NCBI GenBank assembly: GCA_050949565.1
Contig: JBMNFY010000016.1
Coordinates: forward strand, 52,032 to 116,031
Length of the DNA: 64,000 bases
Reading direction: 5' to 3'
Source: Kiritimatiellia bacterium
GTDB taxonomy: Bacteria > Verrucomicrobiota > Kiritimatiellia > RFP12 > UBA1067
Numbering within the stretch: the stretch's first letter is position 1; each line of letters opens with the position of its first letter. Positions 39,674 through 48,090 of the stretch are shown in pieces. The translations under genes were made by a program, and so were the position numbers. The notes beneath the pieces were generated by a model, which saw nothing but the letters and a program-made list of their open reading frames with translations, was not told the DNA's origin and did not search any database.

Positions 39674-41941
39674 ATGAAGCACTTCCTCCTTGTGGCTAGG
39701 CTGATCGGCCTGACGGCCTGTATCATGGTTGCGGTACGCGCATGGGCGCAAGGCGGCGGCATGGTGCCGTTGCCGAAGCAGCCGGGCAACGATGGCCTCG
39801 AAATCACGGCAGACAAATTCGAGGTCGATCAAAAGAGCGGATGGACTACCGCCACGGGCAACGTACGCATCAAAACCGGCGAGCACGAGATGAGCGCCGA
39901 TCGCGTGCGCTTGCATCAGGAGAAGGGGGACGTCCAAGCACGCGGTAACGTGGTGTTGCGTCAGCGCGGATTCGGCGCGTGGTCCGGCGATTACATTGAG
40001 TACAATTACAAGACGGGCAAAGGTCTCACCGGCCTCGGCGAACTGCGGGCCGGTGTCTACCACATTGGCGCCAAAGATGTGACCCGGCGCGAGGACGGCC
40101 GGTTCGACGCCCGCTACGCCGAAATCACCACCTGCACCAATGGTCCGGGCCACCGCCACTGGCGCATGACCGGACACGTGCGCTACAAGGACAATGACTA
40201 CATCGAGGTTTTCGATGCCGTGCCGTGGCTGTTCGGCGTACCCTTCGCCTACCTCCCGTATTGGTTCCGCGACCTCGACACGCACTACGGCTTCCGGCTG
40301 GTGCCCGGCTACACCTCGCGCTGGGGCGCCTACATGCTGGGCGGCTATGTCTACAACATCTACAGATCGCCGCATGAGAACGGCCCCAAGTTGGACGGCA
40401 CCACACGCCTCGACTACCGCACCAAGCGCGGTGTGGCTGTTGGCCAGAACCTGCGCTGGGATCTCAAGGAGTACGGGCGCGGCAGATTCGAATCATACTA
40501 CGCTTGGGACCAAGACCCGCCCGACAGGCGGCGCGACAGAAACTGGATGTCTGACGTAGACGACAACCGTTACCGTTTCCGCCTCTTCCATGAGGCCGAT
40601 ATCACGCCGCGCGATCAGTTTATTTTGCGTGGCACGGTCAACAGCGACTCCGAGATGCGCCACGATTTCTTCGAGAGAGAAAATCGTGGCGAAAGCACAC
40701 CGATGAACTTCGTCTCGTTGGCGCACCGCGAGCACACGTGGGCTGCGGGCGCGATGGTGAGCGGTCCCCTCAATGATTTCTACGCCGGCGTGGCGCGCCT
40801 GCCCGAGGGCTGGTTGAACATCGTGCCGCAGCCGCTCTTTGGTACCGGCTTGAACTACGAGAGCCAGACGCGCGCCGGCATTCTCAACCGCGACGCCGCC
40901 CGCTACGATCGCGCCCTGCCGAAATTCATGTACTATCCGGGTTCTTGGGCCGACTACGATCTGACGCGCGTCGACACTGCTCACCGCGTAACCGCGCCGG
41001 TAAAGATCGGTGATGCGGTCAGCGTCGTACCGCGTGCCGGTTATCGCGCTACTTGGTACTCGGACTCCGAATCCGACAGCAGCGTCGCTCGTCACAGTGC
41101 CGATCTCGGTGTTGAAGCTTCCACGCGCGCGACCGCCGACTTCGACAATGGCTACCGGCATGTTTTTGAGCCGTATCTCGATTACAGCTACCAGCCCACG
41201 CACTTCGATCTGGATAATGGACGCGCCTACACCTTCGACCGTTTCGACCGCTCGATCGAGTGGTTCGATCAGTTCGGCATGGACGGCACATGGCTTCCTT
41301 ATGATTGGCACGGTGTGCGGCCCGGTGTGCGCAACCTGCTTCAGACGCGCGACGAGAAGGGACGCATGCGCACGGTGGTCGATTGGGACGTCTACACCGC
41401 CTTCCAAATCGATGCCGACGGCCCGCTCGACGAGGGGGGCCTGCGCATGGCTGGCAGCCGGTTGCTTGTCAGTCCGGACGAAGCGCTCGATATCAAGGTA
41501 CAAGGCGATTGGGACGTCGAAGAGGAAACCTTCGCCTACGTCGATCTGAGCGCCTTCTACAAGCTCAACGAGAAAATCCGTTTCGGCGGCGGCTATCTTG
41601 CGCGCGACCACCAGTTGTACGACTACGATGTTTCACCGATCATGCAGTGGAACCGGGTCAAGGAGAGCTTGATATACGGCGGCTTCACGCACGACATTAA
41701 CGATACATGGTCGTGGAGCCTCTACACGCGCTACGACCTGCGCTACAACGAGGTAGACGAGGTGGGGGGCTTCATCCAGTACAGCCTCGACTGCCTAGTC
41801 TTCCAACTCCGTGCGGCATACATCAACGACTTCGAGCGCATCGATCGCATCAGCGAGCGCGACAACGACTTCCGCATCTCCATCATGATGTGGCTGCGCG
41901 CGCATGACCGCGCACCGGACGACGAGTGGCTGACCTGGTAG
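39674..41941 (+). CDS. lptD: LPS-assembly outer membrane protein LptD
   Basis: OstA-like N-domain (EITADK, ATGNVRI, ARGNV), ITTC, PFAYLPYW; aromatic-rich beta-barrel region. Confidence 0.85.
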   Translation: MKHFLLVARLIGLTACIMVAVRAWAQGGGMVPLPKQPGNDGLEITADKFEVDQKSGWTTATGNVRIKTGEHEMSADRVRLHQEKGDVQARGNVVLRQRGFGAWSGDYIEYNYKTGKGLTGLGELRAGVYHIGAKDVTRREDGRFDARYAEITTCTNGPGHRHWRMTGHVRYKDNDYIEVFDAVPWLFGVPFAYLPYWFRDLDTHYGFRLVPGYTSRWGAYMLGGYVYNIYRSPHENGPKLDGTTRLDYRTKRGVAVGQNLRWDLKEYGRGRFESYYAWDQDPPDRRRDRNWMSDVDDNRYRFRLFHEADITPRDQFILRGTVNSDSEMRHDFFERENRGESTPMNFVSLAHREHTWAAGAMVSGPLNDFYAGVARLPEGWLNIVPQPLFGTGLNYESQTRAGILNRDAARYDRALPKFMYYPGSWADYDLTRVDTAHRVTAPVKIGDAVSVVPRAGYRATWYSDSESDSSVARHSADLGVEASTRATADFDNGYRHVFEPYLDYSYQPTHFDLDNGRAYTFDRFDRSIEWFDQFGMDGTWLPYDWHGVRPGVRNLLQTRDEKGRMRTVVDWDVYTAFQIDADGPLDEGGLRMAGSRLLVSPDEALDIKVQGDWDVEEETFAYVDLSAFYKLNEKIRFGGGYLARDHQLYDYDVSPIMQWNRVKESLIYGGFTHDINDTWSWSLYTRYDLRYNEVDEVGGFIQYSLDCLVFQLRAAYINDFERIDRISERDNDFRISIMMWLRAHDRAPDDEWLTW

Positions 41942-42123
41942 CCCCTCGGTTGCGATTCAACACGTTGAATTGCAACCGAAGGAGGAGTTAGCCTGCCGCT
42001 CGGCTTCGCCACGAAAAAACCATGGAGTAACTGCGACAAAATGTCCAAGTTGTAGGCAAGGAAGGAGTGTTTAGGTCTCAACACTCGAGGGCGGAGGGGG
42101 CATCCTGTTTGTGCCTCGCCTCA

Positions 42124-42272
42124 GGGTCACATATTCGAATATGTGACCCGGGCGGTGAGCAGTGAACAAAGGCTTTGCCGTGAGAGCTGACGGTCATCCG
42201 CTAGACCAATGCAGTGCGCGGCGTAGCGGGCGTGACGGGCGTCTTAGGGTCACATATTCGAATATGTGACCC
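42124..42272. repeat. Left unit: two perfect 26-bp palindromes GGGTCACATATTCGAATATGTGACCC
   Basis: Copies at 42124-42149 and 42247-42272, 97-bp spacer. Confidence 0.95.
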
Positions 42273-42289
42273 GGGGAGGAGCATGGAAA

Positions 42290-42865
42290 ATGAGAGAGGG
42301 AAAGAATGGGGCGAACTTGGCGCCAACCCTCTGGCGGACATGCCGGGTGCTGGCCAATCCCGACCGGTTGCGTTGCCTCAAGGCAGTGCTGGCGGTGCCG
42401 GGGCGGACCGTAGAGGACGTCGCCACCGTAGTTGGGCTGACAGAGCCTCAGACGAGCCTCGCTTTGCGGGCGTTGCAGTCGCGCGGCATTTTGTCGTCCC
42501 GCCGCAGGAGTCGATGGGCGCATTATTACCCAGAGGCAGATGCTTCGGTCGTGGCGGCCAGCCAGTTTTTGAGCGCCGCCAAAAGTGCCCTCATTGACAA
42601 TCACATGTCCGAGCGGGAGATGAGCAATGCGATGCGAGCCTACACCCACCCGCGCCGCATCGCGATAGTGAGGGCGCTGGCGCACGAGGACAATCTTCAG
42701 CGGGACGAGATTGGCAGCATGTTGGGCATAAGCCGAGAGGCGATGATCCGCCACCTGCGTAAACTGAAGACACTCGGTGTCGTCCGATTGAAAGACGAGA
42801 CCTACTCCCTTGCCAAGCCCAGCTCGGGTCTCGCGGAATCCCTCCGCGCCATCATCCTCGCGTGA
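42290..42865 (+). CDS. Tandem (double) ArsR-like winged-HTH protein
   Basis: VLANPDRLRCL...TVEDVA...TSLALRALQSRG and AYTHPRRIAIV...EIGSMLGISREAMIRHLRKLKTLG; GGAGGA RBS. Confidence 0.85.
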   Translation: MREGKNGANLAPTLWRTCRVLANPDRLRCLKAVLAVPGRTVEDVATVVGLTEPQTSLALRALQSRGILSSRRRSRWAHYYPEADASVVAASQFLSAAKSALIDNHMSEREMSNAMRAYTHPRRIAIVRALAHEDNLQRDEIGSMLGISREAMIRHLRKLKTLGVVRLKDETYSLAKPSSGLAESLRAIILA

Positions 42866-42920
42866 CCCGCCCCGTCGACTGCCCGTCCGTCACTCTTCCC
42901 TCGCCATCCGCATTCCACCA

Positions 42921-43067
42921 CCCCCGGGTCACATATTCGAATATGTGACCCGGGGGGACAAAGAGGGTTTTACCGTGAGAACCGACTGTGATCCACAGGG
43001 CTAAGGCGATACGGGGAGTGGTGGGTACGGCGGGTGTCGTAGGGTCACATATTCGAATATGTGACCC
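42921..43067. repeat. Right unit: two more copies of the same 26-bp palindrome
   Basis: Copies at 42926-42951 (extends to a 36-bp perfect palindrome, 42921-42956) and 43042-43067; 90-bp spacer. Confidence 0.95.
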
Positions 43068-43251
43068 GGGCGTGGGAGCTTTGATTTCAGGTTTCATTGC
43101 TCGCCATTGGTTATCGCTGCCGGTCGTCTGTCGGTCTTCTGCTTGTACAATCACGCAGGGGCTCGCAGAAGCCACTACACTGTCCTTTGCGCTGTGCCCA
43201 GAGGTGGCAGTTGAGAGCCGGGGAGTTCCCAAACCTTGAGGGCAAGGAGGT

Positions 43252-45105
43252 TCAGTTCTCGTTCGAGTGCAGTCCGCCTGAACCGGCGTCGAACTCGATG
43301 TTGGCGCGTTCAGGATCGCCGGGCAGCGCCTTGGAGCAGCTCCAGATGCAGGCCCCGCAATGGACGCACTTTTCGCGGTCGAACTCGGGCGGGGCGCCCT
43401 CTTCTCCAGGCATTAGAGCCTGCGCAGAACAAATCTCAATGCATGTGCGCTCTGTGCAGGAGGCGCAGAGTGCGGGATCGGCGAAGGTCACGTGATTGGC
43501 GAAGCCCGCCGCGGCTTGCACCTTGCCGCCCTTGAAGAGCGCGTCCTGATGCGACATCAACAATGTGCCGTCATACGGAATCTCGGGCCAGCCGGCCAGC
43601 GTCATGATTGCATCATGGAGCGGTTGCCGCGCCTTGGCGCAGGTCTCGACCGCTTCGCTGAGTGCGGCGGGCGCGATGCGTTCGCCGTAAACGCTCGCCA
43701 GCGTCGGAATACGCTGCGAAGGGGGGACGGAGTCGACCGAGAGGTTGAGCATGCCGCGGGTCATACCGGTCATGCCGGTGCCCATCATGCCAAGCATGAA
43801 GCCCTTGCCAAAGCCGTCGCGCGCCTTCTTAGCAGCTTGCAATTCGGCATTGAGCGGATCCTGACGTCGCCGCTGCACATACGCGCCGGTCAGCGCGGCC
43901 TTGGAAAAAGGCTGATCGCGCTTAAGCAGATCGATCACCCCTTCAGCCAACAGCACGCCGCTGCGCCACGCCTCGTCTACACCTGAGTTGGTGAGCACGT
44001 TGGTCGTGCCGGAACCTTCGCCGATGCGGGCGAAGCCGTCGCCGACCAGATACGGTTCGCCGCGCACGCCGGATTCCTGCAGCGACTTCGCACCCCAGGA
44101 GCGCAGCGTGCCGCCCTGAAGATAACGCCACAGGTAGGGGTGCTGCATCCAGTGTTGCAGATAGCGGTAGGTGGTGCGAATCGGATTGTCCATCCACGAG
44201 GGCACGAAAATGCCGAGCGAAGCAGTACGGTCGGGGAAGGTGTACAGGAAACCGAAAATCTCCGGCTCTGGAAAACCCAGCGTATGCAAGACGGTGCCGG
44301 GCTTGAGATCGCAGGAGGCGGGCAGTTCAACCACCATCTTCATGCCCACGGCCCAATCGTGCTGGTGGTTCCCCGTCGGCAGACCGAAATGGCGATCCAA
44401 CTTGCGGCCGACCGCGCCGACCGGGCCATCGCCTACTACCGTCAGCCGTGCGCGGATGTCCATGCCCGGCATGTAGGCGGCTTCGGGTGCGCCCTTTACG
44501 TCTACGCCCTGATCCGCCAGCCGCACGCCGACCACCGCATCGCCTTCCAGCAACGGCGCACTGACCGGTGTGCCGGGCCAGATCTGAACGAGGCCGGAAC
44601 CCATGAGCTGTGCACCGCACCACGACATGAATGCGCCCATCGACATCACCATGCCCGGTTCCTTGCGCAGGAAAGGCGGAATCCAAGGCAATTCAGTAGC
44701 CGAAGGTGCCTTGCGCATGGCGAACTGGCCGTACTGAAAGACCCCATCCGCGAAGCGCGTGCCTGAACTGCGGCGGCTCGCGCCGACGGTGTCGAAAAGA
44801 TAGGCGACCGCCTCATGGCTGATCTCAGCCGCGTTCGGAATCTCTTTCACCAGATCGAGATCGGGGAACGAGGCGCGGATGTGACGGGCTTTGGTGACGA
44901 CGCCGGAAACACCGAACCCGATGTCGTCGGCGCGTTCGTAGCACATCACCTGCAGCGGCATGCCCGGCATCACCTTGCTCTCAAAAGCAGGCGTGCCATC
45001 GGGGTTCATCATGGCGCGGCTCAGGGTGGTCAAAAATCCGGCCGTGGCGGGGCCGAACCCCACGCACACGATATCGGCTTCCATCGATTGTCTTTCAGCG
45101 GTCAT
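43252..45105 (-). CDS. ETF-quinone oxidoreductase (FixC-FixX-like, FAD + 4Fe-4S)
   Basis: DIVCVGFGPA, YLQHWMQHP, WGAKSLQE, DREKCVHCGAC. Confidence 0.85.
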   Translation of the reverse strand: MTAERQSMEADIVCVGFGPATAGFLTTLSRAMMNPDGTPAFESKVMPGMPLQVMCYERADDIGFGVSGVVTKARHIRASFPDLDLVKEIPNAAEISHEAVAYLFDTVGASRRSSGTRFADGVFQYGQFAMRKAPSATELPWIPPFLRKEPGMVMSMGAFMSWCGAQLMGSGLVQIWPGTPVSAPLLEGDAVVGVRLADQGVDVKGAPEAAYMPGMDIRARLTVVGDGPVGAVGRKLDRHFGLPTGNHQHDWAVGMKMVVELPASCDLKPGTVLHTLGFPEPEIFGFLYTFPDRTASLGIFVPSWMDNPIRTTYRYLQHWMQHPYLWRYLQGGTLRSWGAKSLQESGVRGEPYLVGDGFARIGEGSGTTNVLTNSGVDEAWRSGVLLAEGVIDLLKRDQPFSKAALTGAYVQRRRQDPLNAELQAAKKARDGFGKGFMLGMMGTGMTGMTRGMLNLSVDSVPPSQRIPTLASVYGERIAPAALSEAVETCAKARQPLHDAIMTLAGWPEIPYDGTLLMSHQDALFKGGKVQAAAGFANHVTFADPALCASCTERTCIEICSAQALMPGEEGAPPEFDREKCVHCGACIWSCSKALPGDPERANIEFDAGSGGLHSNEN

Positions 45106-45213: not shown

Positions 45214-48090
45214 TCATGGATCGGAGAACGAAAGAGTCACCGGCCCCATCAGGCCCGAGGGCTGGAGCATGTCTTCGGAGGAGAAACCGGCGTAGGGCCG
45301 TAGCGTGTATTCGCCGCCTTTGCGGGGACCGTTACGCAACGCCATGTTGCTCTGCGTGATGCGTTGCTCCGGAGGCAGGGCGGCATCGCCGACCAACCGG
45401 TTGGCCCACGGGTTGGTGACCTCAATCTCCAATGCGTTGGCTCCGGCCTTCAGCGTACCGGTCAACTCGACCTGCCACGGCGCGGTCCAGATCACGTCGA
45501 GGTCTTTGCCGTTCAGCCGCACCTGCGCAAGCGCCGCCACCGTGCCGAGATGCAACACGGCCGTACGGCCAGCTTGTTCAGCGGTGACTTCGAAGGTCTT
45601 GCGGTAGGTGGCTGTTCCCGAGAAGTATTTGATGCCGGGGTCGTTGTGCTTGCTCCAGTCGATCAGCGTGTCGAACATCGCCTTGGCAGGAGCGCCGCGA
45701 CCCGCCTGGAACGCCACTTCCCACGGGCCGGGGAGGGTTTCTGGTTTCAGGGTTTCTGGTTTCAGGGTTTCTGGTTTCTGGGATTCAGGGTTTCTGGTTT
45801 CAGGTTTCAGGGTTTCAGGGTTTCTGGTTTCAGGTTTCAGGGTTTCAGCGCTGGGGGTGGGGCTGTTTCTAAACACCACGAAGATTGAGCCGTGTTCCGG
45901 CAGGTCGAGCGTCAGACGCGTGCGGCTGTCGGGTGTGGTCTCGAAGGGCACCGTCTTAATCGTGCCGTGTACCGCGTCCCATAGTTCGGGTTGCCGACCG
46001 CTGACACGGAAGGTGCAGGCGGCTTGGCCGCTGCCCAACAGGAAGTAGATGTCGGTGTCGGCGTCGCGCCGGTGGGTGTATTCGAACGGACCTTCAAAGT
46101 CGGGCGCGAGTTTCAGTGCTTTCAACGTATCAGCGACACTCGCGGCGGGTGCGGTGGACTCTCCCCACAGCGTAGCGGCCAGACGCTTGACCTCGTCATC
46201 GCTGCCGCTTCGACCGGCCACGCGCGTGGGTCGGCGCGCGCCCAAAAGGACTGTTGCGCCAGCTTTTCGTAGTTCGGCAATCTTACGCAAGACGGCCGGT
46301 GTGGCGCGCTCGTTGTCGAAGTCGACTGCGAGCAGGCGGTAGCTCATGCCATCGGGCAGTGTGATCCGACCGTCCTTGACCGACGCGCGCGTGAGCAGCA
46401 CCTCGTTGTTGAAGATGTCATATCCGTAGCCGGTCGGCAGGGTGAGCGTGGCATTAGCGCTCCAGTTGGTGGTGTGGCGTCCCCAGTGCTGATACGGCAG
46501 GTCACCCACGTACGCCGCGACATCGGCTACGAAGAGACCGCGCTGCAGCAGGTGTTGGCAGCGGCCGAGGTAGGTGATGAAGGGCGCAGACTGCTCAAAC
46601 CAAGTGACGTTGGGATTGAGGTGCGTGCCGGCAAAGTACTCGATGCCGGGCTTGCCGAAGGCTTTGGGCGAACAGGTGAAGGTGTGCCAGATCAGATGGT
46701 TGACGCCGTCGATGAAACTCTCGTCGCCGCTGCGTTTGAGGATCGCGGGGTAGGGGGTCCAGTGGCGTGCCATGTGGGTGAAGGCTTCAGCCGCCGCGCG
46801 TCGGCGTCCGTAGACGTGCGCGGTGATGGCCTGCGGGCGGCTGAGTTGTCGGCCGCGCCGGTCGTTCGCGCCGGTATACCAGAATTCGCCCTGCGGCATG
46901 TCGTTGACGCCCAGGAACTCAAGTTGATCGGCCTCGCCGAGAACAGCGGGCTTGCGGGTCCAAGGCCCCCCTGATTCTGAGTGCCACTGGAGGCCGTACT
47001 GATGCGAGAGGCGCACCATGGTGCCGTAGAAGTTGTGGAGGAAGCAGTCGTTGCGCGTGCGGCGGTAGTCGGTCACGAAGCGTGCGGTCTGTTCGTCGTC
47101 TTGCACGCGGAACCCCGCCAGTACCGGTAGCCAGGGACGCACATCATAGCCGCGGAATTTCTTGAAGTCCGCTTCGAAGGAGGGCGTCCAAGAGGGTACG
47201 GCACCCTCCCAACTTACGTTGTAGAAGTGGGTGAGGGTTTTGCCGGCGAGCGGTCCGATATCATCCAGAAGCGCCTTGCCCATGCGGTTGAAGTGACCTT
47301 CGACAGCCTTGGCGTCGAGGATGTCCACGTCATACTCGTGTCCGTCCATCACGGTGTAGCCGAAGCGTAGCAACGCGGCATGGACGCCATTAGGCAAGGT
47401 CTCATTCAGCAGCGTTTCTTCCTTGGCCGCTGTGACCGGTCCGGTGAGTTCTTGGATCTGCACGGCCGTGTGGGTGACCGCGTCTATCGCATTGCCAACG
47501 CGCCTGCCATACCAGTCGTCAAACGGGCCATCACCCGCGTTGCGCCACTCGGTGGCGGACAACTCGTCACCTGTGTAGTGGACCTTGAAGGCGGCCACAT
47601 CCTTGAAATGAGCAAGAGGCGCGGGCTTGGCCAGCAGCTCCGTAAGTCCGGGACGTAGCGGCAGGAGTTGGTAGACCAATCGTTTGGGCGCGTCCGCACC
47701 GACCTCCCAAGGGCCTTTGAGTGCGCCCGCGCAACTGCTCAGGTTCACACTGACGGTGAGCCCGACCCGCGCGGCCTCGCGCACCGTATGCGTGACCATG
47801 GCGCGCCAGGTCTCGCTCATGAACTCCATCTTCGGCTTGGGATAGATGAGGTGGTTGACGTCCTCGTGGTATCCGCGCGCGTCAAAGAGCAGGATGCCAC
47901 CGAAGCCGATGCGCCGCATCGCCTCCAGATCGCGTGTGATCGTTTCGGTGTCCACGTTGCCGTTGACCCACCAGTAGTAACACCAGGGCCTCTCCGCCAT
48001 CGGCACTTCGCGGAAACCCTGTTCCAACGTGTCGGCACCCGTTCCCAGCACCGCTGCCAAAACGATTCCCAAAAACACAACTTTTTTCAT
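45214..48090 (-). CDS. GH106-like glycoside hydrolase (alpha-L-rhamnosidase-like) with sugar-binding domain
   Basis: RPWCYYWWVNGN, DMPQGEFW, AAEAFT, KYFSGTATY, SGLMGPV. Confidence 0.82.
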   Translation of the reverse strand: MKKVVFLGIVLAAVLGTGADTLEQGFREVPMAERPWCYYWWVNGNVDTETITRDLEAMRRIGFGGILLFDARGYHEDVNHLIYPKPKMEFMSETWRAMVTHTVREAARVGLTVSVNLSSCAGALKGPWEVGADAPKRLVYQLLPLRPGLTELLAKPAPLAHFKDVAAFKVHYTGDELSATEWRNAGDGPFDDWYGRRVGNAIDAVTHTAVQIQELTGPVTAAKEETLLNETLPNGVHAALLRFGYTVMDGHEYDVDILDAKAVEGHFNRMGKALLDDIGPLAGKTLTHFYNVSWEGAVPSWTPSFEADFKKFRGYDVRPWLPVLAGFRVQDDEQTARFVTDYRRTRNDCFLHNFYGTMVRLSHQYGLQWHSESGGPWTRKPAVLGEADQLEFLGVNDMPQGEFWYTGANDRRGRQLSRPQAITAHVYGRRRAAAEAFTHMARHWTPYPAILKRSGDESFIDGVNHLIWHTFTCSPKAFGKPGIEYFAGTHLNPNVTWFEQSAPFITYLGRCQHLLQRGLFVADVAAYVGDLPYQHWGRHTTNWSANATLTLPTGYGYDIFNNEVLLTRASVKDGRITLPDGMSYRLLAVDFDNERATPAVLRKIAELRKAGATVLLGARRPTRVAGRSGSDDEVKRLAATLWGESTAPAASVADTLKALKLAPDFEGPFEYTHRRDADTDIYFLLGSGQAACTFRVSGRQPELWDAVHGTIKTVPFETTPDSRTRLTLDLPEHGSIFVVFRNSPTPSAETLKPETRNPETLKPETRNPESQKPETLKPETLKPETLPGPWEVAFQAGRGAPAKAMFDTLIDWSKHNDPGIKYFSGTATYRKTFEVTAEQAGRTAVLHLGTVAALAQVRLNGKDLDVIWTAPWQVELTGTLKAGANALEIEVTNPWANRLVGDAALPPEQRITQSNMALRNGPRKGGEYTLRPYAGFSSEDMLQPSGLMGPVTLSFSDP
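45735..45848. repeat. In-frame GGTTTCA(G)/GGTTTCT tandem repeat encoding (ETLKP/ETRNP) x~7
   Basis: Protein reads SAETLKPETRNPETLKPETRNPESQKPETLKPETLKPETLPG. Confidence 0.92.

Follow-up and report, generated by a model that had tools for sequence, protein, structure and literature searches.

A tandem ArsR-type gene bracketed by perfect palindromes, very probably its own binding sites, in a Kiritimatiellia genome

We analysed a 64,000-nucleotide stretch of DNA from a Kiritimatiellia bacterium (the window; C16:52032-116031 of the source genome G000, which comprises 4.66 Mb in 21 contigs), in which a single gene encoding a 191-amino-acid protein with two ArsR-type domains lies among four copies of one perfect palindrome. 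The 26-bp palindrome, GGGTCACATATTCGAATATGTGACCC, starts at 42124, 42247, 42926 and 43042, and all four copies are identical at 26/26 positions, with two on each side of the gene, which runs from an ATG at 42290 to the end of its stop codon at 42865. The features of the cassette and its two neighbours are listed here in window coordinates, with the strand where one applies; D1 and D2 denote the two domains of the protein, and G005 and G006 are two genomes of the same genus.

39674..41941, + strand: lptD (755 amino acids; Pfam LptD_N and LptD), left neighbour outside the cassette, pointing into it
41942..42123: left filler DNA of the putative insertion, a region without counterpart in G005 and G006
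42124..42149: palindrome copy 1 (26/26), putative distal upstream operator
42150..42246, + strand: left spacer, 97 bp; its homologs are the right spacer and those at C4 and C1, with the common motif GG.TT..CCGTG.G
42247..42272: palindrome copy 2, putative proximal operator, ending 1 nt before the ribosome-binding site and 17 nt before the ATG
42274..42280, + strand: ribosome-binding site GGAGGAG, read directly from the sequence
42290..42865, + strand: gene for the 191-amino-acid single-chain tandem ArsR-type protein (D1, about residues 14-103; D2, about residues 108-190)
42921..42956: third palindrome copy, with a full length of 36 bp, 56 nt past the stop codon
42952..43041, + strand: right spacer, 90 bp, homologous to the left spacer
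43042..43067: palindrome copy 4 (26/26)
43068..43251: right filler DNA of the putative insertion, up to the ETF-QO stop codon, missing in G005 and G006
43252..45105, - strand: gene for an ETF-QO-like flavoprotein (617 amino acids; Pfam ETFQO_UQ-bd and 4Fe-4S domains), right neighbour outside the cassette, pointing into it

A preliminary description of the locus had reported four identical palindromes around one 191-amino-acid gene, no other copy in the 64 kb, a second copy that abuts the ribosome-binding site and two flanking genes that both point at the cassette, and all of this was reproduced, including the coordinates. No further copy of the palindrome was found in the window even when up to 3 mismatches were allowed, and dinucleotide-preserving shuffles (n = 100) gave a mean of 0.00 copies, with 0/100 containing any. 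Copy 3 has its 26-bp core at 42926-42951. The left unit (palindrome, spacer, palindrome) and the corresponding right unit are direct repeats of one another, with 74.8% identity over 155 columns. The identical arrangement is present in an independent assembly of a metagenome-assembled genome (MAG; locus L023), and 14 metagenomic DNA runs with the arrangement hold 99% of the sampled words; since assembly and runs agree, the arrangement is real and not an assembly artefact.

The 191-amino-acid protein matches the ArsR/SmtB winged helix-turn-helix model NF033788 in two stretches with 76.6 bits (cut-off 55), and its Pfam matches include HTH_5 (34.8, cut-off 22), HTH_Crp_2 and others. Residues 10-91 align with SmtB and residues 112-169 with YgaV. 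An AlphaFold2 model based on a 27-sequence alignment (pLDDT 93.2, pTM 0.86) shows the complete a1-a2-a3-aR-wing-a5 order twice, at residues 14-103 and 108-190. In Foldseek comparisons the single domains superposed on SmtB, CadC, NolR and CzrA at TMt 0.6-0.7, and the whole chain gave loose matches only, to the tandem winged-helix C-terminus of SelB, to ScpB and to RPC62 (root-mean-square deviation >12). The earlier assignment of two fused ArsR-like domains is therefore upheld by NF033788, Pfam and the AlphaFold2 model alike. Judged by that model, the protein is a covalently fused ArsR/SmtB-type 'pseudo-dimer': where the ArsR/SmtB pattern is a homodimer of subunits of ~100 amino acids, both domains are found here in one chain. 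The recognition helices differ between the two, with TSLALRALQSRG in D1 and AMIRHLRKLKTLG in D2.

The sensory site of ArsR/SmtB metal or persulfide sensors is marked by a CxC motif at a3N, by His/Asp/Glu ligands in a5 or by a conserved pair of Cys residues. Neither of the two metal-site motifs was visible by eye in the protein or in the family alignment, on which no motif scan was run; C18 is near-conserved (C or F), C29 is partly conserved, and no a5 rich in His, Asp or Glu could be seen. The invariant residues, which include H120 and H155, occupy ordinary positions of the ArsR framework, and Pfam detected no catalytic domain in the protein.

A profile search among clusters at 50% identity returned 16,385 representatives at E <= 0.001; the number falls to 797 at E <= 1e-10 and to 373 at E <= 1e-30. 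Among the matches listed, all 150 of 150 covered the whole two-domain profile in one stretch. Family members, if they have a name at all, are called only 'ArsR family transcriptional regulator', 'hypothetical protein' (for example, Pontiella desulfatans PDESU_05847) or, in UniRef, 'HTH arsR-type domain-containing'. We found neither a fused tandem ArsR protein nor, for these phyla, a regulator gene bracketed by identical palindromes described in the full-text literature, a search that did not cover subscription journals.

The preliminary description had named as its key check whether homologs are flanked by palindromes of their own. Species-representative genomes contained 227 loci encoding a relative, and the best 80 were fetched and searched for perfect palindromes with arms of >=10 bp and a loop of <=4, no more than 350 bp from the gene. 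At least one was found at 49/80 loci (upstream at 42, downstream at 28 and on both sides at 21), and in 19 of the 21 two-sided cases the same core was present on both sides. Near the gene there were 84 palindromes in 58.8 kb (1.43/kb) as against 16 in 237.9 kb lying >700 bp away (0.067/kb), a 21-fold difference in density. Upstream, the palindrome typically stops 0-20 nt short of the start codon (median 17 in the 80 loci); downstream, it typically begins 4-60 nt past the stop codon (median 35). Arms have a median length of 13 with 0-4 central bases. Arms of >=15 are seen in 9/33 downstream and 6/51 upstream palindromes, and downstream arms reach 25 bp.

It can be seen from the paralogs, too, that each gene goes with a palindrome of its own. 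G000 encodes two, with 43% and 39% identity to the window protein. Paralog 1 is preceded by TTCCACACCTTGAAAGGTGTGGAA, in two perfect copies 145 bp apart with a half-variant third 154 bp further on, and paralog 2 has TGCCCACACCTTTCAAGGTGTGGGCA on both sides, in 2 and 4 copies with a period of ~170 bp. Four paralogs in the single MAG ELA067 (L036, L042, L067 and L087) and three in a marine-rock MAG (L059, L079 and L080) likewise each have a different palindrome, and up to 7 matches to the family occur in one genome (G026). At three orthologous loci (L024-L026; 67-68% identity) the core TCACATATTCGAATATGTGA is kept and the remaining flank has diverged; these have 2-3 upstream and up to two downstream palindromes, ~100 bp apart where there are several. 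The layout of a gene between its own sites is thus found repeatedly in a large protein family, apparently undescribed so far, from Kiritimatiellia and related bacteria.

A potential explanation for these findings that would not need to invoke binding by the protein is that the palindromes act as hairpins alone, as transcript ends, stabilisers or recombination hot spots, with the protein binding some other target and the link between gene and palindrome being a by-product of repeat insertion. The sites are perfectly self-complementary, longer arms are commoner downstream, and the top whole-chain Foldseek matches are the RNA-hairpin-binding winged helices of SelB, but at a TM of 0.27. On the other hand, a T-run follows only 2/33 downstream palindromes, and the association holds at 49/80 loci in many genera, each with its own sequence.

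The covariation of protein and site bears most directly on this question. Of 55 gene-palindrome pairs we used 52, dropping L071, L090 and L092, where the nearest palindrome lacks the CA core; L023, which duplicates the window, was left out. Alignment on the dyad gives the half-site NNN(T/C)(T/C)CA(C/T)A(C/T)(C/T)T(T/C)N. By far the strongest mutual-information signal (z = 16) joins residue 75, which lies in the D1 wing, to the base at position 7 from the dyad: the 43 loci with C at base 7 have Arg (39), Lys (2), Ala (1) or Asn (1) at residue 75, and the 9 loci with T have Leu (6), Met (2) and Thr (1). On the maximum-likelihood protein tree at least 3 independent changes of the base-7 label are forced. 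An Arg opposite G:C and an aliphatic residue opposite A:T would be the pattern expected of direct read-out. Other mutual-information signals (R116, L162, I67, A97 and K158, with base 5) are spread over the fold, and we regard them as phylogenetic.

Covariation with the palindrome, which the preliminary description had asked for in the recognition helices, was found for wing residue 75 of D1, and it is the best evidence in the analysis that the protein binds its palindromes. That residue 75 tracks base 7 over at least three independent switches contradicts, as far as sequence comparison goes, the idea of hairpins that no protein of this family binds, and we consider that idea very improbable. 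Taking the covariation together with the separate sites of each paralog and homolog, we conclude that the palindromes are very probably the binding sites of the tandem ArsR-type protein itself, as had been suggested.

Both the kind of protein and the kind of site are already known. SmtB/ArsR operators are 12-2-12 inverted repeats near the transcription or translation start (PMC8790569), and the palindromes of this family, with their median arms of 13, 0-4 central bases and a median of 17 nt to the start codon, are of this type. The earlier remark that ArsR operators are usually imperfect and upstream only was fair; the site geometry (arms 11-13, 0-4 central bases) is nevertheless the classical 12-2-12 one. 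The protein shares its domain fold and sequence family with the repressors SmtB, CzrA, CadC, NolR and HlyU, and, as in that family, the inverted-repeat operators are ~24-28 bp long and lie near the start of the regulated gene. Self-regulation is likely here. What is unusual for the ArsR type is that two domains are fused in one chain, with no homodimer of single domains; that the operators are perfect, present in 2-6 copies and placed on both sides of the gene; and that there is no co-regulated partner gene, with the extra copies scattered by repeats.

We therefore favour, as the probable explanation of the locus, a tandem ArsR autorepressor bracketed by its own 12-2-12-type operators, of which small repeats have scattered further sites elsewhere. 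The protein would recognise the perfect palindrome, so that all four copies would be its own operators. Because the proximal copy abuts the ribosome-binding site, we propose that binding there shuts off synthesis of the protein. The downstream pair may form a second operator cluster; through looping, or as a roadblock, it may act together with the upstream pair, and it may insulate the gene from its convergent neighbours. As the sequence at which autorepression would act also occurs elsewhere in the genome, the level of protein would follow the number of genomic sites, and the protein probably occupies the solo intergenic sites as well, which would make up a small 'regulon' without a functional theme.

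The plasmid initiators RepE of F and RepA of P1 provide a further comparison, as they have two winged helices, genes flanked by arrays of binding sites, and autorepression at an inverted repeat. The likeness lies in a two-winged-helix protein whose gene is caged on both sides by arrays of its own sites. Unlike them, the 191-amino-acid protein has no Pfam Rep_3 match, no plasmid relatives were found, the palindromes lie ~100-170 bp apart and are not direct iterons of 19-22 bp, and the setting between lptD and ETF-QO is chromosomal.

The preliminary description had proposed a search of the genome, and the palindrome proved not to be confined to the cassette. G000 contains 10 perfect 26-mers and one variant with 2 mismatches, plus a degenerate partner 100 bp after the copy on C4, where there is a lone decayed doublet of the A type. 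Seven sites lie outside the cassette, several of them in mosaic repeat insertions:

C1: solo site between a thioesterase gene and exbB-exbD-tonB
C4: solo site upstream of an ABC transporter
C17:478308: solo site
C17:1315495: solo site after G6PD, between convergent genes
C17:1638117: solo site upstream of argS
C20: two solo sites, on both sides of a GFO/IDH/MocA and xylose-isomerase-like gene pair

Three other genomes also show a cluster of the cognate palindrome at the gene plus 3-14 further copies: G041 has 12 sites (3 of them by the gene), G042 has 16 (2 by the gene, another 2 by a paralog) and G043 has 6 (3 by the gene). The 11 other loci of G042 are all intergenic (4 divergent, 7 tandem and 0 convergent), and their neighbour genes are functionally unrelated.

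A broader class of CACA-type sites is found in G000 at 43 positions in 21 clusters, many of which are doublets (palindrome, spacer, palindrome) with a period of ~122 bp or ~170 bp, conserved spacers and both orientations. Tandem arrays of 3-4 units with a ~170-bp period lie at C17:835181-835730, C8:214558-214937 and C17:34625-35175; every unit opens with a CACACC-type palindrome, and halfway along its spacer there is a conserved TTTTAAAGG or the complement of it. Units from different loci are homologous (~70% by eye) and are found in either orientation, and 2/3 arrays have no family gene nearby. 'Hybrid' sites CCACATATTGAAAGGTGTGG, in which the left half resembles the A-type half-site (CACATATT) and the right half the B-type (CACACCTT), are present at C6:159435, C7:153211, C7:156583, C8:214738 and C17:684795; those at C6 and at both C7 loci are the first member of a ~122-bp doublet, and those at C8 and C17:684795 are inside a three-site array with spacings of ~145-170 bp. 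The A-type palindromes at C20:70383 and C20:73230 (L010), which share flanks on both sides, bracket a 2.8-kb gene pair made up of a GFO/IDH/MocA oxidoreductase gene and a xylose-isomerase-like TIM-barrel gene, and on the right side ~1.2 kb, including the second palindrome and a DUF6498 gene, is missing in G003, G001 and G005. On C4, a 191-amino-acid open reading frame with a TFIIB-type zinc ribbon (PF13453, E 6.8e-16; C4:21665-22240, or L006:3773-4348) follows the first, perfect palindrome of the doublet at a distance of 251 bp and its degenerate partner at ~150 bp.

The C1 site lies within a 362-bp insert that is missing in G004, where the flanks are 95-98% identical, and in G001, G003 and G005, and pieces of this insert and of the C20 flanks are present in dozens of copies in G004. 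Because the insert is missing from close genomes and its pieces are repeated in G004, the palindrome in G000 is, on comparison of these genomes, one module of recently inserted mosaic repeat DNA. Such behaviour recalls REPIN-RAYT systems (Bertels & Rainey), in which each RAYT is tied to its own repeat family (PMC3337134), and a second kind of long-term partnership could be envisaged, with a sequence-specific binder in place of the transposase. The palindromes would then be mobile non-coding elements occurring as singles, as doublets of ~100-170 bp and as arrays; each paralog would be dedicated to a single repeat family, whose palindromes it would help to recruit, protect, silence or count; and the gene with its flanking doublets would itself be moved or lost as a cassette.

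The likeness to REPIN-RAYT systems is real, as a short gene lies among several copies of its own palindromic repeat, doublets with a spacer are scattered through intergenic DNA, and each paralog has a repeat family of its own, suggesting co-evolution. Direct repeats of a 150-bp doublet flank the gene, a lone decayed doublet lies at C4, orthologs lie between unrelated genes, and the cassette is itself an indel (see below). Unlike RAYTs, however, the protein is an ArsR tandem with no Y1_Tnp match in Pfam, and thus no HUH/Y1 transposase; it has no catalytic domain, and its invariant residues are those of the ArsR framework. The palindromes are perfect where REPs are imperfect, and number 6-43 per genome and not hundreds. 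A REPIN family can reach hundreds of copies (bioRxiv 10.1101/119743), against which the 6-16 copies per genome are low. No terminal inverted repeats or target duplication were found at the C1 insert. G000 has 7 Y1_Tnp matches, 5 of them over the cut-off; the three best of these loci have no such palindromes within 1.5 kb, and we rejected a RAYT link for them.

The aligned ends of lptD and ETF-QO are 1315 bp apart in the window and only 87 bp apart in G005 and 76 bp apart in G006, where the lptD DNA is 84-86% identical and the gap consists of a short tract of the AGGAGTTAGG/CCTAAAT type. From these distances the whole block, comprising filler, a repeat module at 41983-42075, both doublets and the gene, is by comparison of the genomes an insertion or a deletion, and the empty lptD/ETF-QO site that was anticipated for a cassette-like unit is indeed present in two genomes of the genus. 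Other genes follow lptD in G001 and G003, and the G004 contig ends just past lptD. At 34 homolog loci (68/148 listed flanking ORFs, or open reading frames, scanned) there were no conserved gene neighbours and the genes found were unrelated housekeeping genes, with the exception of an FGGY kinase that adjoins 4 of the loci.

The intergenic DNA on the left side has further features. A near-perfect 30-bp palindrome, GGTTGCGATTCAACACGTTGAATTGCAACC, lies directly after the lptD stop codon (41947-41976) and is followed by a remnant of a AGGAGTTAG heptamer tract; such a tract is the whole intergenic gap in G005 and G006. The module at 41983-42075, between lptD and palindrome 1, is a dispersed repeat unrelated to the palindrome. 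By blastn, seven contigs carry 11 other copies of it (43-93 bp long, at 82-96% identity), and it is a branch point for RNA-library contigs that come from other loci, with loose ends at 41983 and 42030. Beyond ETF-QO, positions 45214-48090 (- strand) encode a secreted-looking protein of 958 amino acids with PETLK/PETRN pentapeptide repeats in its C-terminal third.

Mobilisation of the cassette in trans had also been proposed, with excision circles as a check, and we found no sign of either: contigs of 4 RNA runs contained no excision joints at the cassette, 40 pattern matches among IMG/VR viral contigs yielded no confirmed relative, and tblastn against 72,556 PLSDB plasmids gave no match. Together with the transposase loci that lack palindromes, this weighs against a partnership of the REPIN-RAYT kind, which we regard as unlikely. 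If it were true, each paralog would co-evolve with one family of mobile perfect palindromes among which its gene is nested, and autorepression would tie the protein level to the number of palindromes, so that every copy would be occupied (protected, silenced or made a roadblock); a by-product would be dozens of natural, mutually orthogonal single-chain repressor/operator pairs.

The distribution of the sites could also point to a system that organises the chromosome or acts as a barrier, in which the protein marks a few palindromes in order to load, block or bridge machinery, as do ParB at parS, MatP at matS and RTP at Ter, and in which the cluster at its own gene serves autoregulation. In Bacillus subtilis, Ter sites that adjoin rtp give autoregulation. 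The 6-16 perfect sites per genome are all intergenic and cluster most densely at the gene of their binder, the neighbour genes lack a functional theme, and spacing within clusters is regular (~100-170 bp). However, no ParB, MatP or RTP match appeared among the Pfam and NCBIfam matches at E <= 0.1, and nothing was found to show the parS/matS-like role that had been raised earlier. That one genome can have several paralogs with different sites, up to the 7 matches of G026, fits poorly with one system serving the whole chromosome; genomes that are 98% identical differ in their solo sites; and the three A-type sites on the 1.97-Mb contig C17 (478, 1315 and 1638 kb) do not cluster. A fork trap needs polarity, which perfect palindromes cannot provide. 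We consider a chromosome-organising role improbable.

The tandem-ArsR gene is covered by RNA-library contigs in 4 runs, each from a different study, and six metatranscriptome runs contain 58-85% of the words. One contig is unbroken from lptD to 42911, and the ends of all contigs fall within 42900-42949, at copy 3 or shortly before it, which is a weak hint of a transcript end there and to that extent would suit hairpins. Most of the right spacer (42980-43053) is uncovered in 4/4 runs, a coverage gap that proves nothing. Being built from RNA libraries, these contigs support expression of the gene but are no proof of transcription and do not fix where transcripts end. A metatranscriptome contig of run X19 has G for T at position 42127 of palindrome 1, a strain variant that breaks the symmetry of an outer position. 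An Rfam scan of 41500-43700 gave no known RNA family and a single sub-threshold miRNA match (20.3 bits as against a gathering score of 80), and four terminator-like matches in 41800-43400 were weak and none coincided with a palindrome. In the orthologs L024 and L025 (68% identity) a conserved promoter-like TTGNCC-17-AATAAT is present ~15 bp upstream of the proximal palindrome; in the homologous stretch of the window (GGCTTTGCCGTGAGAGC) the -10-like hexamer has been lost.

Several findings weigh against an autorepressor bracketed by its own operators. No perfect palindrome was present at 31/80 homolog loci at the stringency used, the covariation rests on only three independent switches, and the promoter scan found 0 sigma-70-like promoters in 41800-43400. 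Since RNA-library contigs run from lptD past both upstream palindromes, these copies are not absolute roadblocks. Several solo sites lie in very recently inserted repeat DNA, which does not look like a selected regulon; no functional theme was seen among the neighbouring genes in G000 or G042; and the flanking-gene setting, callable for 20 of the 21 CACA-type clusters in G000 (9 tandem, 6 divergent and 5 convergent), is the chance expectation, without promoter bias. Perfect symmetry and long downstream arms would fit selection for hairpins as well. Lastly, perfectly symmetric sites are awkward for one asymmetric chain per site with two unlike recognition helices, so that either two chains bind each palindrome or hairpin formation also matters.

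If the autorepressor reading is true, a sizeable family (373 clusters at 50% identity and E <= 1e-30; 227 loci in species-representative genomes) would consist of single-chain ArsR repressors that each have a perfect operator to themselves, and would follow a recognition rule in which wing Arg75 goes with a CAC base pair and Leu or Met with CAT. The family would then offer a natural toolbox of orthogonal repressor/operator pairs and a clean case for studying why the genes of some autoregulators are caged on either side by the regulator's own sites. It would also tie some of the mosaic repeat DNA that is abundant in Kiritimatiellia genomes to a protein.

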